From positions 60,140,001-60,204,000 of the forward strand of contig NW_027266264.1 of NCBI RefSeq assembly GCF_022045235.1: DNA of 64,000 nt. Reading direction: 5' to 3'. The notes under the pieces are model-generated. The model made no database searches. It worked only from the letters and a program-made list of their open reading frames with translations, and was not told where the DNA came from. Position 1 is the first letter of the stretch; the number at the start of each line of letters is the position of its first letter. The translations under genes were made by a program, and so were the position numbers. This document shows, piece by piece, positions 20,706 to 64,000 of the stretch. The DNA comes from Haliotis cracherodii (taxonomy: Eukaryota).

Positions 20706-21163
20706 TGTTGCTCTGTAACTCGACGCATGTCACCTGGTTTACTCGCACAACAAGACTGTCCCAGAGTTGCTCTGTAACTCGACGCATGTCACCTGGTTTA
20801 CTCGCACAACAAGACTGTCCCAGAGTTGCTCTGTAACTCGACGCATGTCACCTGGTTTACCCGCACAACAAGACTGTCCTAAAGTTGCTCTGTAACTCGA
20901 CGCATGTCACCTGGTTTACCAGCACAACAAGACTGTCCCAGAGTTGCTCTGTAACTCGACTCATGTCACCTGGTTTACCCGCACAACAAGACTGTCCCAG
21001 AGTTGCTCTGTAACTCGACACATGTCACCAGGTTTACTCGCACAACAAAACTGTCCCAGAGTTGCTCTGTAACTCGACGCATGTCACCTGATTTACTCGC
21101 ACAACAAGACTGTCCCAAATTTGCTCTGTAACTCGACTCATGTCACCTGGTTTACCCGCACAG
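20706..21163. repeat. 59-bp tandem repeat, ~8 copies
   Basis: GTTGCTCTGTAACTCGACGCATGTCACCTGGTTTACTCGCACAACAAGACTGTCCCAGA. Confidence 0.95.
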
Positions 21164-22249
21164 CATGAGCATGGATCTACGCAAATGGGATATGATGACA
21201 TGCATCAACCAAGTCAGCTAGCCTGACCACCCAATCCCGTTAGACGCCTCATACGACCAGCATAGTCGCCTTTTTACGGCAAGCATGGGTTGCTGAAGAC
21301 CTATTCTAACAGGTATATTCACGGGTGGTATATTCAATAGAAAGTCCCATAGATTTTGTTTTACCTTTGAACACAATCCCTAAATCACACACAATTATGC
21401 TTAAGACAATGTTCTGATTAAAGTAAAATGAAACCAGAAATGTTCCTGATATTTCAGTGGGAACGAACCTGGAATCTTTGCAGCCGGGGAGTGGACCACT
21501 AAACTTCTGACGTGACACAAGACTTTAAAGAATCTTAAGTTGCGTCCCTTGGGCACGCCTATGATTGTGGGTTCGAATCCCGGTTCGCCCCAATCATGTT
21601 TCTAGGTTTGTCAGCCCCATACCCATGCTTGTGGGTTTCACGACCTGCATCACTTCGGGCTTTCCTCTCAAATTAAGCTGACACGCCGATATAACTGTAA
21701 TACTGTTAAAAGCGGCGTTGAACCCAAATTCACTCACTTCACTCAATCTTATTTTTCAGTCAAGTACGCCAGCAAGATATATTTTACGCCCGTTTCCTAA
21801 AGTAACGTGGGTTGGAAACAGACAATTGTTGATAAATGTTGTTTCAGAGTTTTCTTCCGACTTATAAGACGTATAAAACATCGAATTTGGTTACAAATGT
21901 AAACCCGCCAGCTGGGTGATGAAAGGGGTTCATTTGTCTTCGTGCTGCATTCAGGCGGTTTATGTATGTGTAAAAAAACTCACCTTGAAAAATCTCTGGA
22001 AACCCTCTATTACCGTCCCATGAACTCCTCGTGTCTGTATTTTGCAACGGTAGGTAAGCATATTCATACATGAAACACTAGGATGATAGCGCCACTCTAC
22101 CACCGCCAGTAGAAGTACTTATACATGTAGATTCCCTAGGGTGCGTGGTACTGTGAGGTGGTGAGGTCGCCGTGACCTCGGTAACATAGAGCTGAGTGAT
22201 TCGGGAAATGGTCATCTATAGAGGTGAGACAGACGACAGACATTTTCCA

Positions 22250-30235: not shown

Positions 30236-33200
30236 AATACTCCAGATATGTTAAACGTCGTCTTCACAGTTAACATCGGCGTCGCATTTCCTGTGCCAAG
30301 TTGCGTCCCTTTGCAGTGGTGAGATTGATCAACAGATTCGCGCCAGTTATGATTTTTTTTGTCTGTCACCATTCATTACCATCGTGTTTCTTAGCAGTGA
30401 ACACTTACGACTTACTACATGACATGCCTTGATAGAAGTACATAAAACTACGGACCCGAGTTTCGATTTCCCTCATTCTGTTAAGCCCATGCTTTGTGTT
30501 CCATGGCGTAATAGTGACTGCGTGAGTGAGTTGGGTTTAACGCCGCTTTTAACAGTATTCCAGTTATATCGCGGCGTGTCAGCTTGATGTGGGAGTAAAG
30601 CCCGAAGTGATGCAGGTCTCAGACGTTTACCACTTCGGTGAAACCCACGAGCACGGGTATGGTGCTGACAAACCTAGAAACATAATAGGGGCGAACCGGG
30701 ATTCGAACCCACAATCATAGGTTCCTGGAGCGTCCAAAGGACGCAACTCGACGACTGGGCCACCCGTGCCTCCCATGGCGTAATATACATGTAGATGTAA
30801 CATTGTTTCAAGCGCCTCCAATCAATACTCAACTCATTGTCATGTCAGGCGCCGTGCTACGATTGTTTTTTGGTTTGTTGTTTGTTGTTTAACGCCGCAC
30901 TCGGCAATATTCCAGCTACATGACGGCGGTCTGTAAATAATCGAGTCTGGACCAGACAATCCAAGCAATTGGGATACGATTACATGCATCAAACAAGTCA
31001 GAAAGTCTGACCACCCGATCCCGTTAGTCCCCTTTTACGACAAGCATAGTCACCTTTTACGGCAAGCATGGGTTGCTGAAGACATATTCTGCCACGGAAT
31101 CTTCACGGGTCTCATGTGTCATCGAAATCCACATCACCAAACCATAGAAATGTTCCGACCAAAACTGTGAGATGTGTACACCTAGCCTTGTTTTCTTGTT
31201 TGTTTGTTGTTTAACGCATTCAGCAATATTCCAGTTAAAGGTCGGCGGTCTGAAAATAATCGAGTCTGGACCACACAATCCAGTGATTGACATCATGAGG
31301 ATTCATTCACGCAATTGGAATACGATGACATGCATCAACCAAAACAGCGAGCTTGACCACCCGACCCCGTCAGTCGCCTACGACAAGCATAGTCGCATTT
31401 TACGGCAAGCATGGGTTGCTGAAGACCTATTCTATCCCGGATCTTCACGAGTTGTGCACCTGACATGCACGCCGGGTGAAGATTGGGGGGGGGAACAGGC
31501 TGCTTTTCCGCTTTGCATATCAATCGTTTTTATTACAAATTTATTAGGAAAAGTAAATAAATTTGTGTTTAATCCCCCATTATATACCGAAACATGAACA
31601 TTTAAGATACGTAATTCTTTGCACGAAACCAAGCAGCTATGAATGTCCAATTCAAGAGTGTTGTTGGTATTCTCATGTAGACAAAGTGTAAACGATGTGG
31701 AAAATTTCGTTTGTTAACAATTGTTTCATGATACACAATTTACGTATTGTACATAGCTACATGTATAGTGTTGTCATTTCATATTCTACTATCAACGCAT
31801 TATTTTGCAATACCAGCTTCATACATTTCGTCCTCATGGGTTTGCGGTCCATAGCAGTATGACGTCATATCAATACGTTGCCTGAAATAACTGAAGACGG
31901 CGGCATGGACGTTTAAGACGCCACAGGCGTTCTTGAGTGACGTCGGTAAAACATTAATTTGAATGAACTGATGCCTCCACTGGTGATCTACATTTTCCCT
32001 ACATTTCCTCCGAAATGAATAGTTTTGGTAATATATATAACAACCAATTATAGATCTGTTCCCCGCGAGTACAGTTGGAAGTATCGGGGCTCGCCACACT
32101 AATCCACTAGGGATTCTCCGATGGTTATCCTGTAATACGTTTGGGCGGTGGGGTAGCCAAGTGGCTAAAGCGTTCGCCCGTCACGCCGAAGGCCTGGGTT
32201 CGATGGCGTACATGGGTACAATGTGTGAAGCCCTTTACTGGTGCACCCCTCCGGTGAAAACGGCGTAACACCATACTAACTCTATTACGTTCTAACAGGA
32301 ATGGTATCTTGCCAGGATATGCTACAGTTCTAATAGTTATTGGTGGTTTAAGGAAATTTAGTTTACAATATGTGTTTTGGTCACTTATCATCACTTATGG
32401 TCTTTGATGATGTAATACGCCTCATGAACATGACATGGTTGACCAAGAAGCGCTGAGTGGCCTCCCTTCACCATGTCAGGATCCACAGGACGAGCGTTCA
32501 AATCCCAGATTCGACCTGATCATGATCTTTGGTCGTTCTCGTAGGTGAGTGTGGTATTACGACGCTTTTATGAATATTTCAGCACACCTCGGCCGAGTAT
32601 ACCAGAATTGGGCCAAACACATTGTACCCAGGTGGGGAATCGAATCCGTGCCTTCGGCGTGACGTGCTAACGCCATAACCACAATGTACCCCACCGACCC
32701 TTGACGGGAGGTATTACCCACGTTGAAAACATCTTTCACCTGGAAAATCGTGATTTCCTCCCACATTAAACAAATATTCCTGAAATATTGTTCAAGAGAC
32801 CTTGAACAATAATCACCGACTAACTTCAGTGTCCCGAACCAAGACAAAGTGTATCATTACAGACCTCACAAACAATTCATAAACCCAATATGGTTGAAAA
32901 TATTTATTCCAAATCTGTTTCGCACAGTTAGATGTATAGCGTGATAATGCTCTACTATGTATGTACATGATACACGGACGACAAAGACAGGTGTACAGAC
33001 AACCGCCACAGAGTGACGCGGACTCACCAACACAGAAAACAGAACACGTCCACGTACAAAATGTTTGTGTCAAAACAGCAAAACAAAACTACATCATCTT
33101 AAATTCTCAACAAGAATTGTACAACATGGGAAATGTAAATAATTAAATTCAAAAAGGACATTACATCTTTCGAAAAGTTCAATGAATTCATGCTGACATT

Positions 33201-35910: not shown

Positions 35911-37908
35911 TGAGATGATTCATGCATATTCATAAGATGAGACTCCCTGGGCTATAGTAAATTATAAAGGTCAAAAGGTCAAAGGTCATTGTAAGGTCAC
36001 TTTCAGACATGTGATGTGATAGATGATAAAAAATAAGATTTTATGGGTATTGTTCTCAACCATGACAAGAGTTGTAAGTTTTTTCATTTGTGTGAAATGT
36101 CACCTGATGTTACAGTTGCATACGGTTTAAAGGTCATATATCTCAAGGTCCCTTCCTTTACACTACTAACTACCCACTAGCTAGGTTAAATACTACTTGA
36201 TGTTCCATACTGTATCCATATGTACACACAAACTTATATTTACATATATACAGGAAGTGCTATACAGTTGATTTGGTGATTATTTCGAACCAGACAGCTC
36301 ACACCCATGATACTAGTTTCCTTTTGCATGTAAACACTCATAATATACACTAACAAGTACAACATATATCATATAATATTTTTGTAGTGTTGTTGGAGGC
36401 TACTTGGGTATTTAAGTCACCTATTCAACAATTAATCATAAAGTATTATTGATTTTGCATGTGCAAAGAAAACTTCGCTGCATTAAAGTGGAACTATTAT
36501 CTTTATTTACAGATAGAGCTTTAAAAATATCTTTCATATTAATTTCAATCTAAAATAATTCACCATCACGGGTTTACTTACTGAAGCAACACAAAATGTT
36601 CTGGGCTTAAAGGTCTGGCTACAGTGTCTAAACACCTGTTGGTGCTTCCTATGCTTAGCAGACGAATGGCGAGGTTAAAATACAGCCATCCAACTTCAAT
36701 TTTAACATTTTTCAAATATGTATGCTGTTGACCCTAAATTTTAAATTTATCTTTGATAAAAAGTCATGTATAAAAATATTTTATCTACTGACTATGTGTG
36801 AAATAATACATCTACCGATAATGAGTACATTACACCTGTTTGTTTGTTTGTTTGGTTTTTTTTGTTTAACCCCGCACTCAGCAATATTCCAGCTATATGA
36901 CAGCGGTCTGTAAATAATCAAGTCTGGACCAGACAATTCAGTGAACAACATCATGAGCATTCATCCACGCCATTGGGATACAATGACATGCATCAACCAT
37001 GTCAGTGAGCCTGACCACCCAATGCAAACACCTGTTTGACATGCCTTTCACCTCTGTAGCATCACACCTTCAAGCCAGGTAGAAACAGGGATGAATAATA
37101 ACCAAAACATATATATTATCGCCAAGCAGAAGAAATGTGAAGCATCTTGATATTCATGTCTGACGAGACCCTTCACTTAAATGCAGGTTTTAATGCAGAT
37201 GCTTGATATATACCAATATAGTTATGACAACCACCTAAGTTTAATTACACTGGAGAAGGCCCAAATGATGTTTTGAGTGAAATATGTTTAATTTCAAATA
37301 CCGTGAAAAAATATTGTCTTCAAATCAAGACTGTTTCAATGAAACAAAAAAAAGTTGATTTTTAAAAATGTTCAAAATAATATGACGAAACATTAGTTTA
37401 ACGTTCAACTGATCATCATTCAATTCTGCCCTACTCTGGCTCCAGATGTTGAGTCAGGTCACTGAAGGGTTTGTACACAATGTCACAACAGGGTCACTCA
37501 TTCACTCCTTCATCTACTAGTCACATCCATTTTAGGCCACGCTTTATTTTTACTTCATATACCCACTTACCCAAAACCAAGGGGGAAAAATGCTATGTTC
37601 TGAAACAATTTTGGTATTAACTTAAAAATGTAAAATGAGAAATTATGAAAAATACTTCATGTGCCAAAATCTATCAATCTGGTACATGGCAACATGACGT
37701 TTGCAATTTTATTAAAAAATTTACCGAGGTGTCAGACATTGTGTGGTTTAAATAGTTCTTCTCAGAAAGGGGGACATATTGATGGAGAGACTGATAGTGC
37801 ATGTTAATACATTCTTGAAAATATTTGAGCGAAAGAAAGATGTTTCAAGACTTTGCGAGAAGTCACCTGTACTTCTGCAAAGTTAACTTTCAGATTCACT
37901 GTGTCTGG

Positions 37909-42300: not shown

Positions 42301-45300
42301 GCTTCAGCCTTACCAGCACACCATCGGTATCTACAAATAGATTCTGCATTATCAGCATTCATGTTACTGATAACATTCTCTGTATCTGTAACAGCAAACT
42401 TAAACACAATGGGAAAATGATCTGACTCACATCTTGTGGCTACACTGAAATCATAATTAGTACTAAATAATTCAGATGAACATAAGCAATAATCAACCAT
42501 GCTGGCACCCCCACCAGCAAAGCATGTAAAATCCCCGCGGGGATCTGATTTTGTTCTCCCATTCATCATATGTATATCAAGAGAACAGCATAAATCTATT
42601 AAATCACAACCATGGGAGTTTACACGATCATCTGTCCACTTTCTAGATATGCTTAAACTGTCAATTTTATAATTCAAATCTTCCAGTGAAGGAATGTATT
42701 TGTTGCCATCCTGTAAAATATAATCCTTTAAGTTGCCTGTTCTAGCATTCATATCACCCATAATCACAAAAACAAAGTCTTCAATATCAGCATCTGTGAT
42801 GCACGAGAGCAAACAGTTTTCTAAGTAATCAATCCCTTTCTGCAGTCTTGGATCGCTCCGGACGGATGAATATACAGGGTGAATATACACACATCCATAT
42901 AAAATATCGTATGTGTAACCAAAAAGTTTCTTATCCAAAAGCACGAAAATACAATCAGTAAAGTCAGACCAGATCTTCTTGATGTATTGACTTGCAAAAT
43001 GGCTAACGCAAACGGCAACACCGCCTCTGTTATTAAAGTCCCGTTGGTTAATATAAACAGTATGGTTTATAAATATAGAAGAAATGTCATCTTTATTTAC
43101 ATTGTTCCATATTTCAACAAATCCAATGACATCAAACTTCAGACAATACTGTATAAAGTCAGAGTCAGCTAGTTTCTGTTTCAAACCATGAACATTCCAT
43201 GTCACTATTTCAAACCAAGTACGCGCATCAATCTCTGGCGGCAACTGGTGGACCGGGCCATCTTCCTAGCTTAGGCCGGGCGAGCTAATGACATCATCAG
43301 ACGCACTCACTTCACGTGAAAGTCCTGGCTTGTTACCTGATTTGACAGTTGTGACACAGTCTAAACCCAGGTCATAGGAATAAATATTATCCTCAGTATA
43401 CAGCTTATCATACCGCAAAAATGCCTTCAAACCTGATTCACGCGCCTGAAACATCTTCGGGAGAAGTTTCTTTCTCTTCTGTCGCACCAGTGGGGAGAAG
43501 TCCTCAGTAATAAACATATCAGTGTCCTTCAAAGCTTTAGATGCCCTCAGAATAGCGTGTTTGTCCTTGTCGTCTGCTAGCTTAACAATAATAGCCTTCC
43601 CCTTCATAATGCGATGTGCCCTTTGAATGTTCACATCATCTAATAACTGCAGGTCGTTCCTGAGGACATTTTTTACAATCAGTTCACAATCAGTCCATGA
43701 CTCTGTTTCATTACCTCTCGGTACACCGTGAAATATCAGATTGTTACGCCTGCTCATATTCTCAAGGTAATCAAGTTTGTCATCCATTGCTTTCATCTGA
43801 TCTTTCAAACGAAAATTTTCCTCTTCTAGGGCTTGACATCGGTTATTAGTCTCAGAAATCTGCTCTAAAACCACCTTCAGTGTACTCTCAACAGTCTGAA
43901 GTTTCAGATTCATATCATCATTAGAACGCTGAATTTTGTCTATCTTACATGACACTTCTCTCAGTTCATCCAACACAGTTTGTAAAGTTTTTTCACTTGC
44001 CTTTGAGGATAATGTAAGTTGCTTCTCTCCACCTTTACCTCCAGCAGTAGATCTAGTTTGTACGCCATCATTAGAATCCGGACCTGGGTTGGGTTCGACA
44101 CCTCCCATCAGTAACAGCATGAGAATGAGGTTCAGCACAACCAAGCGGGTGTGTATACCAACCAGCGCGTTTAAACGAGGGATGCGTCCACGTCTGGCCT
44201 TATTTGCTTTTCAAATACTGTTCAAAGCAGTATTGAACTCACTCATTTTCCAGAATATAGAGGTGATTAGGAATCTCTAGAGATAGATAATCTTTAATGA
44301 TAAATAGTGAAGTTGAGGATAATGTTTTCACTGTGTATCAAACTCCTGTTTTGAAACATGTTTCAGTAATATTTCAGGTTGACACATGTGAGCTTTAAAG
44401 CCACTCTCCATGTAGGACTTGTATGTATATTCTCTTACCACATTGCCTGGTGATGATGACTGTATCTGCCATGACAACGACCTCTTGATCTGACCTTCTG
44501 GGATGACAATTGGGAGTGATGTCCCCTGACCTGTTATGTCCCCACCAGATGGCACCGACGAGGCCAGGATGTGAGAGGGTGTCTTATGTTCCTGTGTAAG
44601 AAACAAAACAATGACAGTGACAGAGAGGGACAGCTTCCTGATGGATCATCCAGTGAGGAGGTCAGGCTGCACCATTGCTTATTCATTACAGTAAACTACG
44701 GTTGTAATGAACTCTAAGGGACCACAAAATTTAGTAATTATAACAGTTGTTCTTTAGAAGCATATATACAGCAAAACCAGTTCGTCATATCATCCAGGTC
44801 GTTCTAAGCGTGTTCGTTATAAATGTAGTTCACTGTATTTTGTTGAAAATTGGCTGTTTATTAAGTTCTTACTTTTTAAATTTAGGCTTTTTAACGCTGC
44901 ATTCAGTGCAACAATGTAAAACAATGCACTAAAGTTATTTCTGACTATATTGGTCCTATAATCAGGGGGTACGGATGGTCCAGTCATCTAATCGCTGTCC
45001 CTAGGGCACAAAAGAAACCTATGATTGTGGGTTCGAATACTGGTTCGCCCCGATTATTTTTTAGGTTTGTCAGCACCCGGGGTCGGAGGTTTCACCAATG
45101 TGGTAAACATCTGTGACATGCATCACTTGGGGCGATATGAAGCACAAATGAGAAAGACTTTGTTTCCCTGAAGAGTATGAGGGTCTTACCTTTCTCTGAT
45201 AATCATGGTCAAATATCCCAACATTGGCGACAGGTATGACATTGGTGGAAGAGTCCATGTTGCTGAGAGGAGGGGGTGAGGATGTATGCATCTCGGCAAA

Positions 45301-48300
45301 CTGTCGCGTGACATTGTCCATCTCGACTTGAACCTCATTGTAATAGAAGTCCTCCTCCTGGTCGGACAACTCCTCGTCACTGTCACGGCTGAATAAAACA
45401 AGCATGAAACACTCATATCCCCCGCCAATATGACATGTACAGTTGCATGCAAGGCAAGAAATACTGTAAGGTTTCCAAGATCTGCTCCGGAAATCAGCAC
45501 TACCAACATTTTCAGTCTAAGTCAAGTCATTGCTATGGAAACTTGAAAAATAATTTTTTCAAAAATCCCAAACTATCAAAAGGCACCAGTTTACCACCAT
45601 ACCTATCTATTTACCAATGTTGGTGAAGAAATATTGTATGTTTTTCAAGAACAGCTCAGGAAAGGAGCACAACCAACATTTTCAAACTAAGTCAAAGTTG
45701 GTGCCGTGAAACTCGAAACAATTTTTCTTTTCTCAAACTATCACAAGGCACCAGTTTACTACTAGACCTATCTATGTGCAACTAGGTCCACACATAGTAG
45801 TAATAAAAGCACCATACTACTATGCTATTGATACTATAATACCTGACACACACAAATCATTGTTACCTTCAATCACTATTTCAGTCTACTCATACGACAA
45901 GTATTGGATACCTGGCACTATTCTGCACCACTGAGACATGTGGGAAAAGTAGGGAATATATCTGTTATAACAGTCTGATCGAAACAATGTATGGCATCAA
46001 AACTGACTTACTTGAAATGTGTCTTCCGTACATGCTTTGTAATATCTTTCAATGTGTTACAGACTTCCCCACATCGGCGCCATGTGCACTGGAACACTGT
46101 CCTCAGACCCTGGAAAACCAAAACTGCTGATGAGACGAGGGTTACAAACTTCACTGACAGAATGATTTTCTACTGAAGGGACCCACCCAGCATCATCCAG
46201 AGACAAATGTGTCTGTTGTGCCACACACACAAAGATTCCATCTGTTGTAGACATTTCTTTTGTCTAGTTAAACAGATTAAAATGAAATTATATTTCAAAA
46301 CAGATAACATGTGTCTGATCTACAGTTGGAAGAAGAGAGAGCTACTCCTGCAGGTGATAACAAACTCGCTTACGAATCTTCTGTTTGAGAAAACATGTTG
46401 TCATTTTTGTATCAAATACCATTGTTGATAATTGATACAAATACAAAATTGTATGATGCATTTTCAAACAATATCAAATACTTACAGCTGAATTTATCAC
46501 AGAATATATATCCTCACAACCCTTATCACAGTGTCTTTAACCTTTTCAATCTCAGTAAATTAGATAATAAATGTGCAGGAATAATAATAATAATAATAAT
46601 GATCATCATCATCATCATCATCATCATCCATTGATATGGCACTGTACTCCATGCATAAGCATGCTTTAAGTGCTTAGATCAATGTGTACACTCAAAAATC
46701 ATTCTCAGCTCCCTTGGAAATATACAACCCAAGCTGCCTGTTAGGTGCTAGAAGGTTAACAGCCACATTGCCATCTCATCCTACCGGATACCCATCAACT
46801 GCTGGGTGAACAGAGACACATTTCGAACAAAGTCACTTGCCCAAGGAGACAACACATGTGCTGCATGTGCTTCAGTGTGGGGCAGGACCGAGTCCCTAGA
46901 TGCAGAAACTGATACAGGTAATCAGGTTCTTTAAAAACATCTAGCATTACTTTCAAAGATTCAATAAGCACGTACATTAAAACTAAATGTACTCATGTTT
47001 ATTTTAAGTTATTCCAGAGAAATGCCGTAAAAGGCGACTATGCTTGTCGTAAAAGGCGACTAACGGGATTGGGTGGTCAGGCTCGCTGACTTGGTTGATA
47101 CATGTCATCGATCCCAATTGCGAGGATCGATGCTCATGATGTCAATCACTGGATCGTCTGGTCCAGACTCGATCATTTAACAGACCGCCGTCATATAGCT
47201 AGAATAATGCTGAGTGCGGAGTTAAACAACAAATCAACCAACCAACCAGAGAAAGATTTTGGTGCAATTAGTCTTTTATTTACCATAGCAACAATGTTTC
47301 AAAGTGAGCAGTAAAACGTGAGACATGTCATACTTCCAGTGTCGGTGTTTATAAACTGTTATACACAGTGAAAGTGGGAACTGATAGATGGCCTATGACA
47401 AAAACCATATCAACAACACGATGACCTTGGGGTAACCCTCTCCGCTCTGCACCATGTGACTTTGTCCCATGTTACTGTGTGTGGATATCTATCAGTTAAA
47501 CTGTCAGTCATCACATGCAATGTTCCTGTCCACACTACAGGAGTCTGGTGTTTTGTTTATTTGTTTGTTTGTTTCTTTCTTGTTTAACGCCATACTCAGC
47601 AATATTCCAGCTATATGACAACGGTCTGTAAATAATCGTCTGACCCACATAATCCAGTGATCGACATCATGAGCATCGATTCTCGCAATTGGGATTTGAT
47701 GACATGCATCAACCAAGTTAGCGAGCCTGACCACCCGATCCCATTAGTCGCCTCTTACGACAAGCACAGTTGCCTGTTACAGCAAGCATGGGTTGCTGAA
47801 GACCTATTCTACCCGGGATCTTCATGGGCACTGACAAAATGTACCACCATGATTTTGTGCTCAAATGGTCTCATAAGGAGTCAGTGAGGGAGTTACATCC
47901 CTTTGAACAGTTCCTGCATGACATAAATTCACCATTTCTTACAGCGGTGATAAAATCTTGTGTTGTCTTCCATTTCTCCAAATTGTAAAACAGAGTTGAA
48001 CAATTTTTTGTTTGTCAAAAGTCATCATATTTAGGGTAATTTGAGCTTTTTTGGTTTGTCAACCTTGTAAACCAACTAAACAAAAAGATAAGCCCTTATG
48101 ATGGCAAATGGTTCCAGGCTAATAATAAAAAAACAGAGATAACCAAGAATGTGGGGCTCAGGGCTTGCTTTAGCTATAGATCACATGCACCAGAGCTACC
48201 TATTTTTAAAAATGGAATCTTATATTTATGTCTACATGCACCGAATGTCAAAAATATTTATAAAAAACTAACCATTACTTGTCAACAAAACAATGGTCTT

Positions 48301-54300: not shown

Positions 54301-55138
54301 TAATGACAGCCAGTCTCTTATATTTCTTTGTCAGTATGTATGTTTGTAAATTCGGACTAAGAAGCATCCAGTTTGGCTTATTCAGCAATTTTCTAAGTTC
54401 GTTGTGCATGATTATGTAAAACCTTTGTAATCCAAACAATTCTGAGTGCTCTCAAAATAACACAGCAATGAGGGGACATTGACAATACACGTCTAATTGC
54501 CAGTTGTGCTAACTGTTCCTAACGTAATACAATATGAGAAGAAATCAGCGTGACGATTTCATAACAAGACCGACTGCCGGTGCAAGCGATCAGCTGTTTC
54601 AGACAAGTAGGTCGCCCGATATAGAAACTTACCGTGACTTTGCCGGCACGTCGATTACATGTGAAACTGGTCTCTTCTTTGGTTCGGAAAGTTGAATATC
54701 TGCAAGTTTGGAGTAGTCTGTGTCCAAATCAGCTAGTCTGGCCGATTTTCTACTTTCTAAGAGCCTCACTTCGTCAATTCTCTTCACCATCTCTCGCCTC
54801 TCCCCGTCCATTTGCGTGACTGTTATCAAAACATTATCCTCGTCCTGTGTAATAACAATCGCTGACACTTCTCTCCCATTCAGGGTCACGAACACTTTCT
54901 GTCCATTTCTCAAGTTAATTTCTGTCATTTGACAGAATCCCTGCCCGACAATGCCTTCTGAAGTAATTTCCTTGGAATCCCCATTGTCGAATTTGACCTT
55001 ATACATAGCACTTGTTATAAAACCTTCCTCGGAAGTCTGGGATTCAATAATACCGGGGTAGTATCGGCCATCTTGTTGGAGCGCTGCGATTCTCGTTCCT
55101 GTAATGGATCGCTTCGCCAGCTTTCTGTTCCCAAACAT
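39084..55138 (-). CDS. ZNF704: ZNF395/ZNF704/SLC2A4RG-family (Glut4EF/HDBP-like) transcription factor, 7 coding exons: 55138-54633, 53525-53359, 53021-52786, 46109-46012, 45388-45190, 44591-44439, 39314-39084 (1590 nt, ~529 aa)
   Basis: All introns are GT-AG with compatible phases (2,1,0,2,0,0). Contains the N-terminal '[12 protein letters not shown]...DGRYYPGII' block, the '[12 protein letters not shown]' motif, a C2H2 finger, the acidic 'EEDFYYNEV' block and a C-terminal C-clamp. Confidence 0.9.
39756..43265 (-). CDS. LINE ORF2: AP endonuclease, reverse transcriptase and C-terminal CCHC; no start AUG
   Basis: TWNVHGL, GDMNAR, VDY and SDH (APE); [19 protein letters not shown] and LLYADD (RT); CRYC...EDEFHF..VC. 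Uninterrupted ~1170 codons starting immediately after the ORF1 TAG. Confidence 0.95.
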   Translation of the reverse strand, partial: EDGPVHQLPPEIDARTWFEIVTWNVHGLKQKLADSDFIQYCLKFDVIGFVEIWNNVNKDDISSIFINHTVYINQRDFNNRGGVAVCVSHFASQYIKKIWSDFTDCIFVLLDKKLFGYTYDILYGCVYIHPVYSSVRSDPRLQKGIDYLENCLLSCITDADIEDFVFVIMGDMNARTGNLKDYILQDGNKYIPSLEDLNYKIDSLSISRKWTDDRVNSHGCDLIDLCCSLDIHMMNGRTKSDPRGDFTCFAGGGASMVDYCLCSSELFSTNYDFSVATRCESDHFPIVFKFAVTDTENVISNMNADNAESICRYRWCAGKAEAFSELLRDSLSSYSFDDFMGEISSGVNCAVTKLTSLIITCASVSDMKVITSSNICTFSGARWHDSECKELKHEKYRILNMFRITGDLNYLQQFRQLRNAYRNMCRQKKLIFEERLLEDLMSHTCNPKIFWNQVKGLVSKNSNATQFIAPSEWVSYFKNILNITDYDVDHDNLASAESFVYEHEESNCFVCNDEELNDILNCEITEPEILHAINHLKDGKAAGPDGVLPEMIKCCKGNLLPYLVILYNAILHSGNFPEDWARGLLTPLHKKGSKFDVNNYRGITLSDVLGKIFTFILNKRLTMFCDIYDKIPESQAGFRAGYSTIDNIFVLQSLIQKYLSKANGRFYCLFVDFRKAFDCVNRKLLWYVMLNKGIHGKLFYVIKDMYLKVKSAVKLSNSTATCYFETLSGVRQGCTLSPILFSLLIVELESMLHSSGERGIFVSQESLDILLLLYADDLCIIDDTVVGLQRKLNILKSFCTKWGLEVNHSKTEILVFRNGGKLRSTEKWRFGDVNVNVSTYYNYLGLLFSNRLCWTTGINSLVQKANKALFVVKKLQHCLKNIPVHILFKIFDIQIKPILLYTSEIWGYSKIAAIEKFQIKFCKFTIGIGSHVTNVAALGECGRYGLFIDYHKKCIKYWLKLLSLPSYRYPKQCYLMLKSLDEVNRTTWVTCVKRLLFSYGFGHVWISQEVGNETLFINAFIQRVKDCNQQDWYCKVCEIRKLSMYKEYKSLLTVEKYLCEITSRHYRRMFCLLRIGELPLMVNLGRRCGIEYCNRQCRYCNLQEIEDEFHFMLVCPCYRYLRNKYLPIYYSSNPTLFKYNTLLSCNRTSIVTNCVKYILEALAIRNTVT
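43266..44144 (-). CDS. LINE ORF1: 2A-like motif, coiled coil and L1/Tnp22-type RRM region
   Basis: [13 protein letters not shown]; heptad-rich segment; [21 protein letters not shown] and FITEDFS motifs; frame open to the element's 5' junction. Confidence 0.85.
   Translation of the reverse strand: MVVLNLILMLLLMGGVEPNPGPDSNDGVQTRSTAGGKGGEKQLTLSSKASEKTLQTVLDELREVSCKIDKIQRSNDDMNLKLQTVESTLKVVLEQISETNNRCQALEEENFRLKDQMKAMDDKLDYLENMSRRNNLIFHGVPRGNETESWTDCELIVKNVLRNDLQLLDDVNIQRAHRIMKGKAIIVKLADDKDKHAILRASKALKDTDMFITEDFSPLVRQKRKKLLPKMFQARESGLKAFLRYDKLYTEDNIYSYDLGLDCVTTVKSGNKPGLSREVSASDDVISSPGLS
44439..44591 (-). CDS. ZNF704: ZNF704-like exon 6
   Basis: acacag acceptor; EHKTPSH...[15 protein letters not shown]; GTAAGA donor. 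Confidence 0.82.
44689..44835. mobile_element. Tc1/mariner/pogo-type MITE, same TIR family as 61583-61756
   Basis: CAGTAAACTACGGTTGTAATGAAC ... GTTCGTTATAAATGTAGTTCACTG, TA flanks. Confidence 0.7.
45190..45388 (-). CDS. ZNF704: ZNF704-like exon 5 (acidic region)
   Basis: ttattcag acceptor; [19 protein letters not shown]...DHDYQRK; GTAAGA donor. Confidence 0.9.
46012..46109 (-). CDS. ZNF704: ZNF704-like exon 4 (C2H2 zinc finger)
   Basis: ttttccag acceptor; [32 protein letters not shown]; GTAAGT donor. Confidence 0.9.
48506..50314. repeat. 85/87-bp satellite array, ~21 copies, in ZNF704-like intron 3
   Basis: TGTGTTACCATTGATCACACTGCCACATAGGTACTGCAACAGTAAGTACTAACATACTACAAATCATGTCATGTC(AC)ATCAGAGATC. 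Confidence 0.97.
50575..50777 (-). mobile_element. Copy of the TAG...CTA element
   Basis: TSD CAAATATCA/CTAATATCA. Confidence 0.75.
52786..53021 (-). CDS. ZNF704: ZNF704-like exon 3
   Basis: ctttttcag acceptor; FLRSPGSF...[17 protein letters not shown]...EHK; AAG|GTATG donor. Confidence 0.82.
53359..53525 (-). CDS. ZNF704: ZNF704-like exon 2
   Basis: TAG acceptor; RERRHLDS...[15 protein letters not shown]...KDK; G|GTCAAT donor. Confidence 0.85.
54633..55138 (-). CDS. ZNF704: ZNF704-like exon 1 (start codon; invertebrate N-terminal domain)
   Basis: [19 protein letters not shown]...VIDVPAKSR ending at a CG|GTAAGT donor. Confidence 0.88.
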
Positions 55139-55249
55139 ATCTGAAACGGTTCATCAACGATACATATGATAAAGTTGAGTACTAATTTCCAGATCCCGTG
55201 CGTCGATGTACCCCAGATATTCTTCAATGTCACCGCTTTCTGATGTAAA

Positions 55250-55430: not shown

Positions 55431-57690
55431 TCACGAGGGCAAAGGTTGTTTATGTATTTTTATCGCCCTTCTTTGTGTTTCCTAGGTGATTAGGATATAG
55501 TTATTAGGTACTAAAATTACTCGAGAAGTTATTTGTTGATCAAAATATTAACACTCGACATGTCAGGATGCTGTATTTCCGCCTACTGGTTGTTTGATGG
55601 CGCAATTTGCAACGTGTACACAAACTGGGTCAAATTCATGTTTTCGGTGATGCTAACTTCAATTAGTTGCCCAGCAGTAAAAAGAACATAAGTTATAAAA
55701 CAAGCGTATCTGTGATGCATATGATTCTCGTTGTTACTAGATACGATTGCCAAAGTATTTACATCAACTCAAAAATCGCAGGTTAGACATATTTTCACAC
55801 TCTTAGGGAATACAGTAGATCCAAATATAGCTACACGCTGGAGGCAAAATAAAAGACGGAAGAGCCAAGGTAGGGAAAGGTCATGATATAAACATTATTA
55901 CCCACAGTGCAATTTTAACATGGCAGCGCCCACAGCACTTCAAATGAGAGGATGTTTGAGGTGCTTCACTGACATTATTATGTTATATTTCCTTGCAAAC
56001 ATCGTGGCTTATGTAGCATGTCATTTGGCGGATGGAGTTGAAGGTAATATATCGATTATGCAGTCTTGTCAGTTCTTAAAATAGAATAATTAGATTGTTG
56101 TGGTGCACGTACACACAAATTATAGGCTCATCTTATAGACGACATCATTCCCATAATTCAGCTAGTGGTGTCTGTTGGTTTATATTCATCCATTCAAAAA
56201 CTAAAACCACGACGCTTTTCAGTTATTCATTCACTGTCATCGCCTAGCGTGACAGCCTATCTTGATGACAAACTTTGACAGATTTCTGTCGTGTTTTGAT
56301 ATTCTCATATGCGTCCCATGGGAATTCTGTTTACATTAGCGGTAGACAGATTCAGATCTGTTTTAAACAGAATACGTAGAACCGCAGATGAACATGCCTG
56401 TCTGTTGTTGGACAAATATTACACGCATATATTGTTCCACATAACTTCTCTTAATACACATTATAGCTAGACGAGCATGTGTTATGTATATATCAGTTTC
56501 TATAATGTGGTCATGATATTGCAAAGTCTCAATAAAGTGTGGAATGTCACATACTGTAACGCACTGGCTGATAATGCATCACTGTGGAATGAAGGCCTCT
56601 ATACTGTATCATGTACATGGAGTCTGAAGTCACACACTTGACTTGGGGGGAAATGTTACCAGAACTGGGTATGGCAGCAGGCAATAGCTGCAGGATATGG
56701 GTTCGCGCTTGAACATTCTCTGGGAATAACCTAGGTTAGCTGTTCCGAGTGAAGTAATTTTGCAAGTTCCGATCCTTATCGAAGGACAGATAATGCGTAC
56801 ATGCCGAGCTGCCAGTGGGATATTCTTTATATTACTCAAAAACTGTGGAATCCGCAGTTGACCTAATGTTAGAAAGACGTCACGTTAAATCGTTTGTGAA
56901 GTCATTGCGAGCACATGACGTTACGTTGCTATATGGACCTCTTCGCAAATAATTGAAGTTGGTTTGTTGTTTGACGCTGTACTCACTCAGCAATATTCCA
57001 GCTTTATGACGGCGGTCTGTAAATAATCGAGTATGGACCGGACAACCCAGTGATTGATATCATGATCATCGATCCAAGCAATTGGGATCGATGCTATTCA
57101 TCAACCAAGTCAGCGAGCCTGACCACCGGATCCCGTTAGTCGCCTTTTACGACAAGTATAGCCGCCTTTTACTGCTAGCATGGGTTGCTGAAGATATATT
57201 CTACAAATATTTGGAACGAACTAGATCTATAGCCAATCAACATTATACAAGTAAAAGCGACAAAAACATTTCCATAATCCTAAGAAATCTGTAATAAAAG
57301 CAGAGTTCACTGAACGATTACCGCTATTTTATAGAAACAAATTAATTGTCCCTGAAAATTCTGCAACAAATATTCATGCTTCAGACCTCTGAAAAAAAGA
57401 AAAGAAATTGCCTGTCACCAAAATTACATTGTTGCAATATGTATTTTTTAAAACTATTCAGGTTCTTATCTCATAGCTAAAAAAAATATCTAATCTCGAT
57501 TCAGAATCCAAGCAAGCACCCCTGCCCCAAAAAGGGAAAAGTATAGGAAATAGTCGGTCCCTTAAACACAAGTGCTCAGACACAGGTGAATTATTACAAT
57601 TGTTCCATTGGTTTCATTGTTTGCGAATAGGCCCATAGCAACGCTACGCCATGACGATGTTATGTGATGTCGTTCCAACAGTAACTGAAC

Positions 57691-57798: not shown

Positions 57799-58675
57799 TG
57801 GTGTCTTCACTTGAGATAAGAAAACCCCACATTTTTCTACATTTTCACAGAAAAAAAGACTATGAGTAATATAACGAAATACAGTGTTGAATTAATGTTG
57901 AAATGTCCTCCCCAAGCCTCGATACTTACTTCACAGGGTACAGATACATACAAGTCCTTGTATAGCTAGTAGGTAAAATACTGCAAAGTATTACATGTGA
58001 TCTGAATGATCAATTGTGTCGTCACACTCATGACGAATTTTGGTCACAATAACGGCTGCGTATGGATATCATATTACTGAGATGCTGGCTGATTTCGCGT
58101 GTCACTGTATCCATGGCACCCTATCCCCAATTGCGTAGATCGATGTTCAGGTTGTCAATCACTTGATTTTCTGGTTCAGGCTCGATTATTTACAGACCGC
58201 CGTGTGGGAATAACCAATATTGAAGCCTTTTCACATAACAAAACGTGCGTATGAATACACCGATAGCCTACGTATCAATCTATAAAAAATATTGGCTGCC
58301 TTTCACCGATCAGAACTGCATACCGTATTGATATGTCCTCTAATAGACACTGGATCTCGAGTACAAACCAGGTCTCTAATTCACGCCGGGTCAACAGCTT
58401 TCGCGAAATTAATGGACCTCCCATCGTGTGATAGAGGAAATACGGTACGTTTGATCTCGGATGTTTTGGGCGACGATTTGGACGTAATATACACTATAGA
58501 TGACGCCTTCACATAGTTTGGGGGATTGGTCTCAGAATTCCGATCCAATTTTAACATGGCCTGTCCGGTGGACACGTTTTAAGGCTCGCTGACTTGCTTG
58601 ATGTATTCCATTTGCGGAGATCGATGATCATGATGGCAATCATTGGATTGTCAGAAGCGTCTGAAGCCAGAATAT

Positions 58676-58932
58676 ACCCGTGAAGATCCGGGAAAGAATA
58701 GGTCTTCAGCAACCCATGCTTGCCGTAAAAGACGACTATGCTTGTCGTAAGACGCGACTAACGGGATCGGGTGGTCAGGCTCGTTGACTTGTTTGATGCA
58801 TGTCATCGATCCCAATTGCGTGGATCGATGTCCATGATGTCAATCACTGGATTGTCTGGTCCAGACTTGATTCTTCCCAGACCGCCGTCACTTAGCTGGA
58901 ATATTGCTGAGTGCGGCGTTAAACAACAAACC
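58676..58932 (+). mobile_element. SINE-like family C (no tRNA head), full copy
   Basis: ACCCGTGAAGATCC...GCGGCGTTAAACAAC with (CAAA)n tail; ~15 copies or fragments, e.g. 2012-2215, 12497-12659 plus 14210-14258, 21165-21326(-), 30880-31110(-), 31195-31450(-), 36855-37022(-), 47022-47248, 47575-47828(-), 56960-57200(-), 59243-59472, 62477-62737, 63322-63575. Confidence 0.85.
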
Positions 58933-59731
58933 AGGCAACCAGTCATGCTTGTCAGTTGGACCCACTGAAGTAGGGCTCGTATGGCAATATGACTTGACTG
59001 GTCACGTGTCATCCTACCCCAGTGGCGTGGCTCATTGTCCACTTCAAGTCACTGGTTTGACTGTTCATCGGTTATTTACAGATATAGCTGGAAAAGTGCT
59101 GACTGCGGCGGTGAACAACATTCATTCTCACACTTGACTCACAGCACCATCACAAATACACGAGTAATCTTCGTATTTTCTAGTTGCTACCTGGCGTTGC
59201 GGGAGACTAACGGGATCGGGTAAAAACAAACCTACTAATATACGGGTTAGAATTGGTCTAAAGCAACCCATGCTTGTCGTTAGACGCAACTAACGTGATC
59301 GGGTGGTCAGACTCGCTGACTTGGTTGATGCATGTCATCGTATCCCAGTTGCGTAGATCGATGCTCATGATGTCAATCATTGGATTGTCTGGCCCAGACT
59401 TGATTATTTACAGACCGCCGTTATATAGCTGAAATATTGCTGAGTGCGGCGTTAAACAACAAACAAACAAACCAGCGAAGATACCGGTTAGAATTGGTCT
59501 TCAGCAACCCTTGCTTATCGCAAGAGGCGACTAACGGGAACGGGTGGTCAGGCTCGGTGACTCGGTTGATGTATGTCATCGTATCCCAACTGAATAAGCA
59601 TGAGTGTTGATCCTTTTCGAACTGATGGACTTTGTTGGTTGAATTCCCTACCGCTAGTTCTTAGTTAATATCAGTCGTTGTTTGTTCGAGTATATGTAAA
59701 ATGTGTGCTAACAACCACTTCTTCTATGTAT

Positions 59732-59896
59732 GGGGGCGGTCGGGTAGCCTAGTGGTTAAAGCGTTGGCTCGTCACGCCGAAGACCCGGGTTCGATTCCCG
59801 ACATGGGTACAATGTGTGAAGCCCATTTCTGGTGTCCCCCGCCGTGATATTGCTGGAATATTGCTAAAAGCGGTGTAAAACCATACTCACTCACTC
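59732..59896 (+). mobile_element. tRNA-derived SINE family A, full copy
   Basis: A box TAGCCTAGTGG, B box GGTTCGATTCC, (ACTC)n tail, TSD TTCTATGTAT; other copies at ~7340-7505(-), 19937-20010(-), 20187-20330(-), 32143-32280(+), 32545-32700(-). Confidence 0.9.
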
Positions 59897-61756: not shown

Positions 61757-64000
61757 TACTTGGTTTCCTTTAGGCAGGGTTAATGTTAAAACTGTAATAA
61801 AACATTCACATTTCGGACTTGATGGATAATATTGTCCTGTATACAGTACTATAGCAGTGTTCAGTTCGGCTGGTTCAGCCGGCTTCAAACAGGTACTTGC
61901 ACGCGGAAACAGGGCCCCAGTACGTGTCGCTCTTCCGCCAAGAGACTCGAAATGATTTTATTCGTGCTGAGCACAAGTGTACGCACCACACCAAGCGTGT
62001 ACAATGAAACACCAAGATACGGGGTCAAAATATTCAATTTTTGTCAAAGCAAAGCATATATACGACTCAAAAGAAGGAAACCCGTTTCTTTCATGTTACT
62101 ATAGTTATTCTGTCATGACAGATTACATTAAATAGAGTAATAAGACAGATTATCTTTAGTATATGTGATATGGAAGAATCGGGTATTCTTTAACTTCTTT
62201 TGAGAAGTTGTTTACATATTATATACTGTTGAGGTGTATATATCGAGGTGTGTTGACGTCTATTCGCTCTTCTAACAGCGTATGGTATATTGCAGTACCT
62301 GCGGGAGACTGATTCTCAGATCTGAATATATGTATTTTTGATAGCAGACACAAGCAATTACATATACATATACGCCAGTTGAAAGAACACACCTTCAATG
62401 TCGCGCCACGGTGACAGTCGCCCATCAAACAAACAATCCGTCGTAATCTTTTCCATTTCCTATCTCTCTGATGTAACTCGTGAAGATCCGGGGTACAATT
62501 GGTCTTCGGCAACCCATACTTGTCCTAAAAGGCGACTATGCTTGTCGTATAAGGCGACTAACGGGATCGAGTGGTCAGGCTCGTTGACTTGGTTGATGCA
62601 TGTCATCGATCCCAATTGTGTGGATCGATGCTCATGATATCAATCACTGGATTGTCTGGTCCAGACTCGATTATTTACAGACCGCCGTCACATAGCTGGG
62701 ATATTGCTGAGTGCGGCGTAACTACAAACAAACAAACATTACCTCACCTAACATGCCTGGATAAAAACATGTTGTTTTTCTTTTCTTAATGGAATTAGTA
62801 ATTTGGGTAATGCGTACTCTTTGACAACAATTATCAATTTAAACATTATCGGTCATGAGCTGGACAAACGCCTGTGAATTAATTAAATCCGGACAACTTA
62901 AATTACAGTTGCAAACTCGAGCACGCACACTGTATCAGGACGGCGATGCACTGACAGGCACGAAACTGTTGTTAACCTATTTCAGCAAACAGTTGTCACC
63001 TTTCCGGTTGGGCATGACGCAGCTCGAATATTGCCGGCAGTTACCGGTCAAGTCCGAATGGCTCGAACGAGTTGTTCACTCGGAACTTTCAAGGTCCAAA
63101 GAGTTGCCCCCCTTACATCCCCACCGACCCGCTATATGTTTGAATATAGCCACAGTGGAAACGGCTCTATTCTCGTACTCGTCATGTAAACTTATCAAAG
63201 TTGTGTTGTCAACAAGTATTAAACCGCGTGTTTATCGACACCTAAATTGTGAGATAGACAGATAGATCCGAATCAGCTGTGGGAGATACAGAGTCTTTAG
63301 GCTGTGGTGTGTAAATATTATTCGGGGTAGAATAGGTATTCAGCAACCAATGCTTGCCGTAAAATGTGATTGTGCTTGTCGTAAAAGGCGACTAACGGGA
63401 TCGTTTGGTCAGGCTCGATGACTTGGTCGGTGCATGTCATCGATTCCAATTGCGTGGATTGATGTTCATGATGTCAATCATTGGATTGTCTGGTCCAGAC
63501 TCGATTATTTACAGACCGCCGTCATATAGCTGGAATATTGCTGAGTGCGGCGTTAAACTATAAATCAAACCAAACCCAATTACATATATGTATAAAATAT
63601 CGTAAAATACCAACTCCCTCAATCACCGATGGATAATTATGCAGTCAGCTCAAGTTGATCGGAGTTTGTTTTTTAAATTAGGGGCATCACGCTTGTCCCC
63701 CAGACATAACTGTAGTGAGTTATTTACATTCAGAGAATGTCCAGAATAAGTGCCACGTCATGTCTACAGTCTCCAAACCCGCACTTCGCCAAATCCTTGT
63801 TTGTATAATAAAGCCCCAGACGATACTATTGCATTTTTCTTATTGTGTAATGTACATAATATTTTATCAGTAAGATCCGGGTATGTCGTTGAGCTCAAAC
63901 GTGTGTGTCTGCTTTGGGTTTTGTATTTGTATATGTATGAATGCATTCATCCGGGAATATACCTATGCACAAACGTGTCTGGCTCTGTGGTTTTCAATGT

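Follow-up and report, generated by a model that had tools for sequence, protein, structure and literature searches.

The defining features of a SINE are transcription by Pol III and a head of the small-RNA type. The DNA analysed here is a stretch of 64,000 nt of the Haliotis cracherodii contig NW_027266264.1, read on the forward strand and referred to below as the window, and it holds many copies of a SINE-like repeat, family C, that begins with a structured head of another kind. This raises the question of how the 5′ end of the family-C RNA is made. The initial annotation of the window proposed that the head may be a ribozyme that frees the SINE by cutting itself out of longer transcripts. 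The answer put forward here is that the head is a module of ~70 nt with two pseudoknots, found in SINEs, in LINE 5′ UTRs and in the 3′ UTRs of RNA viruses, and that it may act as a passive block to 5′-to-3′ exonucleases that sets the SINE 5′ end. This second part is offered tentatively, as the favoured reading of sequence comparisons.

The transcription of LP-SINEs, the type to which family C belongs, has been a question since 2016, and the presence of the module in viral 3′ UTRs makes it testable with a 70-nt RNA. If the head blocks Xrn1, animal genomes would encode a new xrRNA class, and SINE RNA could be formed by a new route. If it binds ribosomes, animal retroelements would contain an enhancer of a type known from plant viruses, and a translation route for uncapped, ribozyme-cut LINE RNA would become apparent. 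Either way, one cis-acting RNA would be common to retrotransposons and several virus groups.

Family C in the window and in the genome

The family-C copy at 58676..58933 (+) belongs to the long subfamily and consists of head, body, LINE-like tail and CAAA repeats. Its structured head, or LP domain, occupies 58676..58766 (+; model R1 match at 58671-58772, 60.5 bits) and includes a tandem 22-nt duplication at 58716..58759 (+), in which the decayed copy (58716-58737) is followed by the second copy (58738-58759). The 3′ tail and the CAAA repeats lie at 58893..58933 (+). This tail is common to the Nimb/I-like LINE copies L241 and L248, with 90% identity over 30 nt when measured with the 62476 copy of the SINE.

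Full-length copies of the long subfamily are also found at 62476..62735 (+) and, with two CpG-type changes, at 47576..47828 (−), and another full-length copy lies at 31202..31452 (−). The head is complete in the copies at 30880..31110 (−), which has an internal deletion, and 21160..21326 (−), which is without its 3′ part. The short subfamily is represented at 59243..59470 (+), with a clipped 5′ end and a B-box-like 9-mer at 59356-59364, at 59471..59592 (+), without the 3′ part and with a model R1 match, and at 2021..2208 (+), an old, 5′-truncated copy. Other 5′-truncated copies occur at 63320..63567 (+), 56960..57202 (−), 47023..47244 (+) and, with no head, 36858..37023 (−), and a fragment is present at 12524..12655 (+). 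Model R1 further matches a diverged head without family-C body at 45870..45950 (−; 23.6 bits) and a possible partial head of another family at 10666..10751 (−; 15.4 bits, E 0.016). The copies to which the initial annotation had drawn attention were all found, at 58676 and 62476 and, on the minus strand, at 21326, 31110, 31452 and 47828. The division into two subfamilies by the 22-nt duplication was likewise borne out, the duplication being present at 58716-58737/58738-58759 and absent from the copies at ~2021, 59243 and 59471. Among 23 unbiased full-head copies, 16 are long, 2 are short and 5 are unassigned.

A family-C profile (length 248, tail repeats extra) was made from 25 copies and searched against 400 kb taken at round coordinates genome-wide, together with the window. 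It gave 102 matches, 82 in the 400 kb and 20 in the window, and the matches occupy 3.5% of the 400 kb sampled. Extrapolation to 1.18 Gb suggests ~240,000 family-C matches, which are matches rather than exact copies. In the 400 kb and the window, 31 of the 74 matches that reach the tail begin within the first 10 model positions while the others are spread evenly, in agreement with the sharp 5′ end described initially. The base preceding CCCG at the start of the head is A in 75 of 89 head-bearing copies and the base preceding that one is G in 53, with no dominant base further upstream. Target site duplications (TSDs) of 9–18 nt were found in 32 of 67 complete copies, which have CAAA-type tails; they end 0–2 nt before CCCG in 20 copies, 3–4 nt before it in 10 and further away in 2. 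The 5′ ends of family C thus lie 1–2 nt before the first helix of the head.

Among the 150-nt upstream flanks of the 89 copies, similarity adjoining the head was seen in two pairs only, both of them neighbouring duplicated loci, and ARAGORN gave one tRNA-like match among the 89 flanks. Since these flanks are unrelated, family C is not missing a tRNA or 5S head, in keeping with its first description as an element that starts at the head itself. No tRNA was detected in family C by Rfam or ARAGORN, and its body has no BLAST match to 16 tRNA-like loci from the H. cracherodii genome, loci that cover few isotypes. Family C therefore has no tRNA-like head such as marks SINE2 (tRNA-derived) elements. 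The statement that there is no Pol III promoter was nevertheless too strong. A strict A box within the first 60 nt is seen in only 1 of 89 copies, but the B-box consensus 9-mer is present in 42 of 89, mostly at about +125 or +147. Many copies have an A box with one mismatch near +15, although such boxes occur at many positions, and A and B boxes are ~130 nt apart at best. Runs of T4 are found in only 10 of 67 copies.

The fold of the head

The secondary structure of the head was assessed by covariation in 35 matches aligned to model R1. In hairpin 1 (58682-58688 with 58701-58707, + strand, in the copy at 58676), all 8 model pairs change on both sides, and in hairpin 2 (58709-58711 with 58717-58719, + strand, loop 58712-58716) all 3 do so. 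The covariation score of the two hairpins is 0.518, compared to 0.189 in shuffles. Many of these changes are from A-U to G-C, so they are not mere CpG decay, the confounding process to which the initial annotation had pointed. Hairpin 1 also contains a conserved AGAATA strand (58695-58700, +). Hairpin 3 (58744-58747 with 58755-58758, +), recognised from its sequence, is invariant, in part because the searches demanded it; it is also kept in LINE copies that were found by protein. All three hairpins drawn initially are thus present, two of them with covariation.

Two pseudoknots tie these hairpins together. Pseudoknot 1 pairs the 5′ end of the head with loop 1 (58677-58680 with 58689-58692, +; 88% of cells paired), and pseudoknot 2 pairs loop 2 with bases after hairpin 3 (58713-58715 with 58763-58765, +). 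The latter has only 3 bp in family C and 4–7 bp in most other families, with loop and partner combinations such as CCTGG/CCAGG, CCTCC/GGAGG, CCTTC/GAAGG, ATCT/AGAT and CTCA/TGAG. Both were assessed by swapping partners between rows 10,000 times in 30 rows, 3 redundant and 2 truncated rows having been dropped. Pseudoknot 1 scores 4.22 versus 3.80 and pseudoknot 2 scores 3.82 versus 2.97, and neither score was reached by any of the 10,000 swaps, counts that are not probabilities, as the rows are related to each other. An earlier and rougher parse with 25 rows had the same outcome.

The initial annotation had instead drawn a closing stem, CCCGT/ACGGG, and a loop-loop pairing. The former scores 2.88 versus 2.88, reached by 5087 of 10,000 swaps, and the latter 3.35 versus 3.30, reached by 3302, so that both are at chance. 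The head is therefore a conserved, pseudoknotted RNA, as had been supposed, with a different topology from the one proposed. The closing stem is returned for the 58676 copy by minimum-energy folding, which is blind to pseudoknots; this accounts for the fold seen by eye and is not a test of it, and across families the stem was rejected. Since both topologies can be drawn within family C alone, the earlier fold looked right. The CCCAT/ATGGG variant of the 47828 copy, which had been taken as possibly compensatory, is found in 1 of 70 copies, while 8 others vary in another way at the two positions, and its double change is as expected of CpG decay.

HDV-like ribozymes are characterised by a nested double pseudoknot in the order P1-P2-P3-P1.1-P4 and a G.U first pair. 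The head, by comparison, has two sequential pseudoknots and no match to RF02682. No Rfam family matches it in the window or in the viral, metagenomic and LINE loci, the hammerhead, twister and HDV models included; for hammerhead, twister, twister-sister, pistol and hatchet, there is no match to the head at the gathering score or at E values up to 1-10.

A separate observation concerns older heads of H. cracherodii (L404:1476-1556, L420:1476-1558, L290:6652-6733 and L263:635-717), in which hairpin 1 reads GGGGA/TCCCC rather than the GAAGA/TCTTC of family C, a double change within one lineage.

The head in SINEs, LINEs and viruses

It has been reported by Matetovici et al. in 2016 that Haliotis has LP-SINEs of 255 bp (Hdi_LP and Hmi_LP), whose first ~70 bp match the 5′ ends of Nimb LINEs of locust and zebrafish and of a turtle RTE, and that such LP heads can stand in for tRNA heads in SINEs (PMC4758252, in the text available). 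The core of the scallop “Nimb-17 homology” block in supplementary Fig. S2 of that paper is the same as that of family C, and its helices are the same by eye. In sequence, the head of family C matches the ~70-nt LINE-derived LP domain of these mollusc elements, as judged from the scallop core. LINE and SINE heads are 73% identical over 59 nt, and family C also has variable TSDs, 3′ tandem repeats and a length close to 255 bp (248 in the profile, plus tail repeats). The available text of PMC4758252 differs from the present description in proposing a promoter and in describing no structure, viral copies or upstream HDV-like element. The idea of an undescribed motif survives for the fold, which matches no Rfam family, whereas the head sequence was described in 2016 as an LP-SINE head. 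The double-pseudoknot fold, the viral copies and the arrangement of an HDV-like element plus head appear to be new, in that no description was found in open-access text, while the SINE type and the head sequence were known already. The literature covered for the fold and the viral copies was open-access text, and a search of open-access papers for the head core sequence found none.

In the 2016 account, the LP domain is a putative promoter, with the Pr77 ribozyme as an analogy (PMC4758252, available text). The head DNA would then act as an internal promoter with the start site at the 5′ edge of the head, either as this “LINE promoter” or, in family C, as a stretched Pol III type-2 promoter, and the RNA fold would serve a separate role. 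In molluscs, locust, zebrafish and turtle, the head stands where the elements begin (PMC4758252, in part), which is consistent with such a function, as are the B-box 9-mers, the A boxes near +15 and the scarcity of T4 runs in family C, and Pr77 offers a precedent for a dual promoter and ribozyme (PMC3383444, in part). The one-mismatch A boxes occur at many positions, however, and the covariation described above is at the level of RNA helices. Further evidence comes from other head-bearing families.

An exact 17-nt core pattern was searched against viral contigs and metagenomes, and it retrieved 9 stretches in the former and at least 122 in the latter. Among the metagenome matches listed, most are short repeats with the head at the 5′ end. 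In three metagenome families, the copies start a single base ahead of the first helix, the starting base being A (20 of 30 copies), G (10 of 13) and G (9 of 10), and four SINE-like families begin 1–2 nt before it with first bases that differ and are all purines, which also fits a promoter. Several head-bearing families have runs of T4–T6 in or right after the head and neither an A nor a B box; these are unlikely to be Pol III RNAs, which speaks against the promoter. In one family, a tRNA-like A box lies 16–17 nt past the core, and similarity between copies still starts at the head. A cap-derived G was considered as a general feature of these 5′ ends and rejected, as G stands before the first conserved base in only 7 of 30 copies of family F1.

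Other arrangements were also noted. One family (L100, L109, L123 and L128) carries the head immediately before a tRNA-like region that has an A box, an order also seen in scallop MESC SINEs. Other repeat families (L142, L137 and comparable metagenome loci) retain just the 3′ half of the head, joined to different upstream sequence, and a metagenomic repeat (L075:1362-1518) has two heads in tandem. A prokaryotic distribution was considered and found no support: only 5 of 26 GTDB matches bear the whole head and none is convincing, one of them heading a complete LINE, two lying by simple repeats and two being on short contigs of host-associated bins. We read these matches as eukaryotic DNA in the bins. 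The complete LINE among them (L239, G001:C4:517500-527500) is of animal type, with head, ORF1 and a 1238-aa ORF2, and lies in a 537-kb contig of a bivalve gill-symbiont assembly, as a result of either host contamination or transfer.

The LINE partners of the head were sought in the H. cracherodii genome with the ORF1 behind one head as protein query. In 28 of the 30 best loci, the head lies 580–810 nt upstream of the ORF1 match. The head-bearing LINEs encode endonuclease, RT and RNase H, and the label Nimb/I-like follows from this architecture together with PMC4758252 (in part). The LINEs begin 58 nt upstream of the head with an element that folds, by inspection, as a minimal HDV-like ribozyme. 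This predicted ribozyme has the HDV order, a G.U first pair and a start at G1, and in 3 of 3 loci tested it gives a full-model match to RF02682 of 27.5–29 bits, which is below the gathering score of 44. It stands at the exact LINE 5′ end in a young Nimb/I-like family (L228:667-724 and L241:765-822), in which 39 of the 40 best copies are identical over 177 nt of UTR. LINE copies start at GG in 29 of 30 and 28 of 30 cases.

Two further searches, by head and downstream UTR alone, were pooled with the protein search and gave 90 loci with 86 distinct head matches. The HDV-like element is retained directly upstream in all 86 (84 with the core intact and 2 with an altered version), it adjoins the head without a spacer, and none of the 86 LINE copies starts at the head, contrary to what a promoter at its 5′ edge would predict. 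Mean identity among 15 LINE copies is 0.98 in the HDV part, 0.92 in the head, 0.85–0.89 in the next 200 nt and 0.43–0.66 beyond, ORF1 included. The LINE head is 92% identical across subfamilies in which the ORF1 DNA is 65% identical. The 5′ UTR also contains many upstream ATGs. From these comparisons, the LINE 5′ end is probably made by the HDV-like element, a candidate ribozyme, and the conserved head would serve another role there. A LINE whose head is identical to that of family C was not seen among 30 inspected of 61 pattern matches, which resembled copies of the SINE lineage and had no downstream frame over 201 aa, and an exact search with one full-head pattern gave no copies.

These LINEs bear directly on the proposal that the head is itself a new self-cleaving ribozyme, which would cut 1–2 nt before the first helix and release the SINE RNA. 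The sharp 5′ ends and a double pseudoknot with invariant unpaired bases are what such an RNA might show, and ribozymes are known at LINE 5′ ends (PMC5786205) and in the UTRs of linear toti- and tombus-like viruses (PMC13725137), as far as the available texts of both go. However, all the LINE copies retain the HDV-like element next to the head, where a second cutter would be redundant. Different families have different bases at the putative cleavage site, and no Rfam ribozyme model matches the head. In the viruses described below, where the module follows the last ORF, a cut at the start of the 3′ UTR would detach the end of the genome from its coding part. Cutting by the head at its own 5′ edge, the central idea of the initial annotation, is thus disfavoured and is considered improbable. 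The head resembles the HDV-like LINE ribozymes and the Pr77 of ingi/L1Tc (PMC3383444 and PMC5786205, both in part) as a short conserved 5′ module of unrelated LINEs and their short derivatives; unlike them, it is without the nested HDV order, and the separate HDV-like element is upstream of it in the LINE and absent from the SINE.

With looser patterns, 38 viral stretches were obtained, most of them chance matches. Eight viral contigs score above 40 bits, one of which was new, and two of the eight are near-identical, leaving seven distinct. Six of these are RNA-virus-like: they carry RdRP_4, RdRP_3, a nodavirus capsid, a peptidase A21 capsid, an S-domain coat and, in the sixth, an ORF with RdRP-like motifs by eye and no Pfam match. 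The module is in sense orientation in each of them and follows the last ORF seen, 1–121 nt past its stop and 3–108 nt from the contig end, although these ends may be incomplete. The seventh is a 212-kb DNA-virus contig with the module between two genes. Pseudoknot 1 can form in all seven viral versions and pseudoknot 2 in four. Tandem pairs of the module are present in two of the six RNA-virus contigs, L031 and L396; flaviviruses have tandem xrRNA copies.

Possible roles of the module

The presence of the module in RNA viruses, which have no DNA stage, rules out a promoter that acts in DNA only, and transcription from the head itself is accordingly a poor prospect as the explanation of its sharp ends. 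The viral 3′ position would instead call for a function of the RNA itself and for a host partner that unrelated viruses have in common. Such a partner might be sought in the polymerases: the module could bind the polymerase of the element or virus that carries it, or another host protein, in replication, packaging or localisation, and sharp ends could arise by selection for complete modules. This would fit the location of the module near viral genome ends, and the region of the T-shaped structure (TSS) of plant viruses, a 3′ CITE, also binds the viral RdRp (PMC5336357, in part). The enzymes concerned are nevertheless unrelated, and a Nimb/I-type RT, RdRP_4, RdRP_3 and a large DNA virus would all need one motif; moreover, neutral SINE copies cannot gain a sharp end by selection alone. 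Polymerase binding therefore seems very improbable. One motif for such different polymerases is unlikely, which makes a host enzyme or the ribosome the probable partner.

If the partner is the ribosome, the head would be an enhancer resembling the TSS of turnip crinkle virus (TCV) and PEMV2, which binds 60S and 80S ribosomes. It would permit cap-independent translation of viral RNA and of HDV-cleaved LINE RNA, and it would dock SINE RNA on ribosomes to capture new ORF2 protein, the SINE 5′ end being made in some other way. The analogy is close in several respects. Like the head, the TCV TSS has a pseudoknot at its 5′ edge and a loop 2 that pairs just 3′ of the third hairpin (PMC5336357 and PMC5712577, in part), and both have three hairpins with two pseudoknots that bound the fragment. 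The TSS lies in 3′ UTRs, and 2 of the 6 RNA-virus contigs, with the module close to the contig end, have a tombus-type RdRP_3 or S-domain coat. The upstream ATGs of the LINE 5′ UTR and the capacity of LP heads to replace tRNA heads (PMC4758252, in part) are further points in its favour. The head is shorter, however (~70 nt compared to ~100 nt), its third hairpin is invariant and minimal, with only 4–5 bp where the TSS has a large H5 with an internal loop, and it has no run of five upstream adenylates (PMC5336357 and PMC5712577, in part). Pseudoknot 2 is optional in the viruses, as it cannot form in 3 of 7 versions, and the module is found in toti-, noda- and tetra-like contigs and in animal retroelements as well. 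In addition, an enhancer leaves unexplained why elements without the HDV-like ribozyme start exactly at the head. Such an enhancer is a serious possibility on the unlikely side, and the main rival of the favoured reading.

If the partner is a host enzyme, the favoured candidate is a 5′-to-3′ exonuclease that the module would stop. SINE copies would be read through inside host Pol II RNAs, and in this respect the proposal agrees with the initial annotation that SINE RNA may come from read-through transcripts. Decay of the host RNAs by Xrn1 or Xrn2 would stall at pseudoknot 1 and leave an RNA that starts at the head. The LINE ORF2 protein would then recognise the common tail and reinsert a copy of this RNA in the genome. 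In LINE RNA, which the HDV-like ribozyme would leave uncapped, the module would serve as a second safeguard of that end, and in viruses its product would be a stable 3′ subgenomic RNA like those of known xrRNAs. It has been found that Xrn1 halts at the base of the first helix in plant xrRNAs (PMC12397905, in part). A block of this kind would account for where the SINEs begin, for the families that look like Pol II products, for the place of the module in viruses and for the HDV-like element kept in 86 of 86 LINE copies.

Several observations fit an exonuclease block less well. The topology of the head is not that of xrRNA classes 1–3 as defined in PMC12397905 (in part). Classes 1 and 2 have a three-way junction and a double pseudoknot, whereas the closing stem that would make such a junction in the head is at chance. 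In class 3, an apical loop pairs with the 3′ end, whereas loop 1 of the head pairs with the 5′ end. The head is like these classes in being a compact pseudoknotted RNA of viral 3′ UTRs with a predicted stop at the base of the first helix, and unlike them in occurring also at retrotransposon 5′ ends (PMC12397905, in part). A ring around the 5′ end cannot be shown from sequence. No LINE copy starts at the head, though some such copies might be expected if LINE RNAs were trimmed. The purine starts of all four families would also suit initiation of transcription, and a cap might be the source of the G seen in 53 of 89 family-C copies. The invariant AGAATA and hairpin 3 would suit a binding site or a catalytic core equally well, and the topology matches that of the TSS, a known translation enhancer. 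An exonuclease block and a translation enhancer could both hold.

A wider proposition is held somewhat more doubtfully than the block itself. The head may represent an undescribed class of exonuclease-resistant RNA that has been passed among animal retrotransposons and viruses of unrelated RNA and DNA groups, and that lets a promoterless SINE of ~200,000 copies propagate as a decay product of host transcripts.

The window also contains elements of other kinds. A tRNA-derived SINE head with A and B boxes lies at 59738-59809 (+). An apparently intact LINE at 39759-44210 (−) has a 314-aa frame and a 1169-aa endonuclease-RT frame, with no RNase H match and no head of the family-C kind. The frames at 12798-13825 (+) look, by eye, like a Tc1/mariner transposase; the frame at 13328-13825 has no Pfam match at E 0.001. 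Finally, exons are found at 54632-55150 (−), which matches DUF4772 and Tudor-like domains, and at 3089-3670 (−), which belongs to an aquaporin (MIP).
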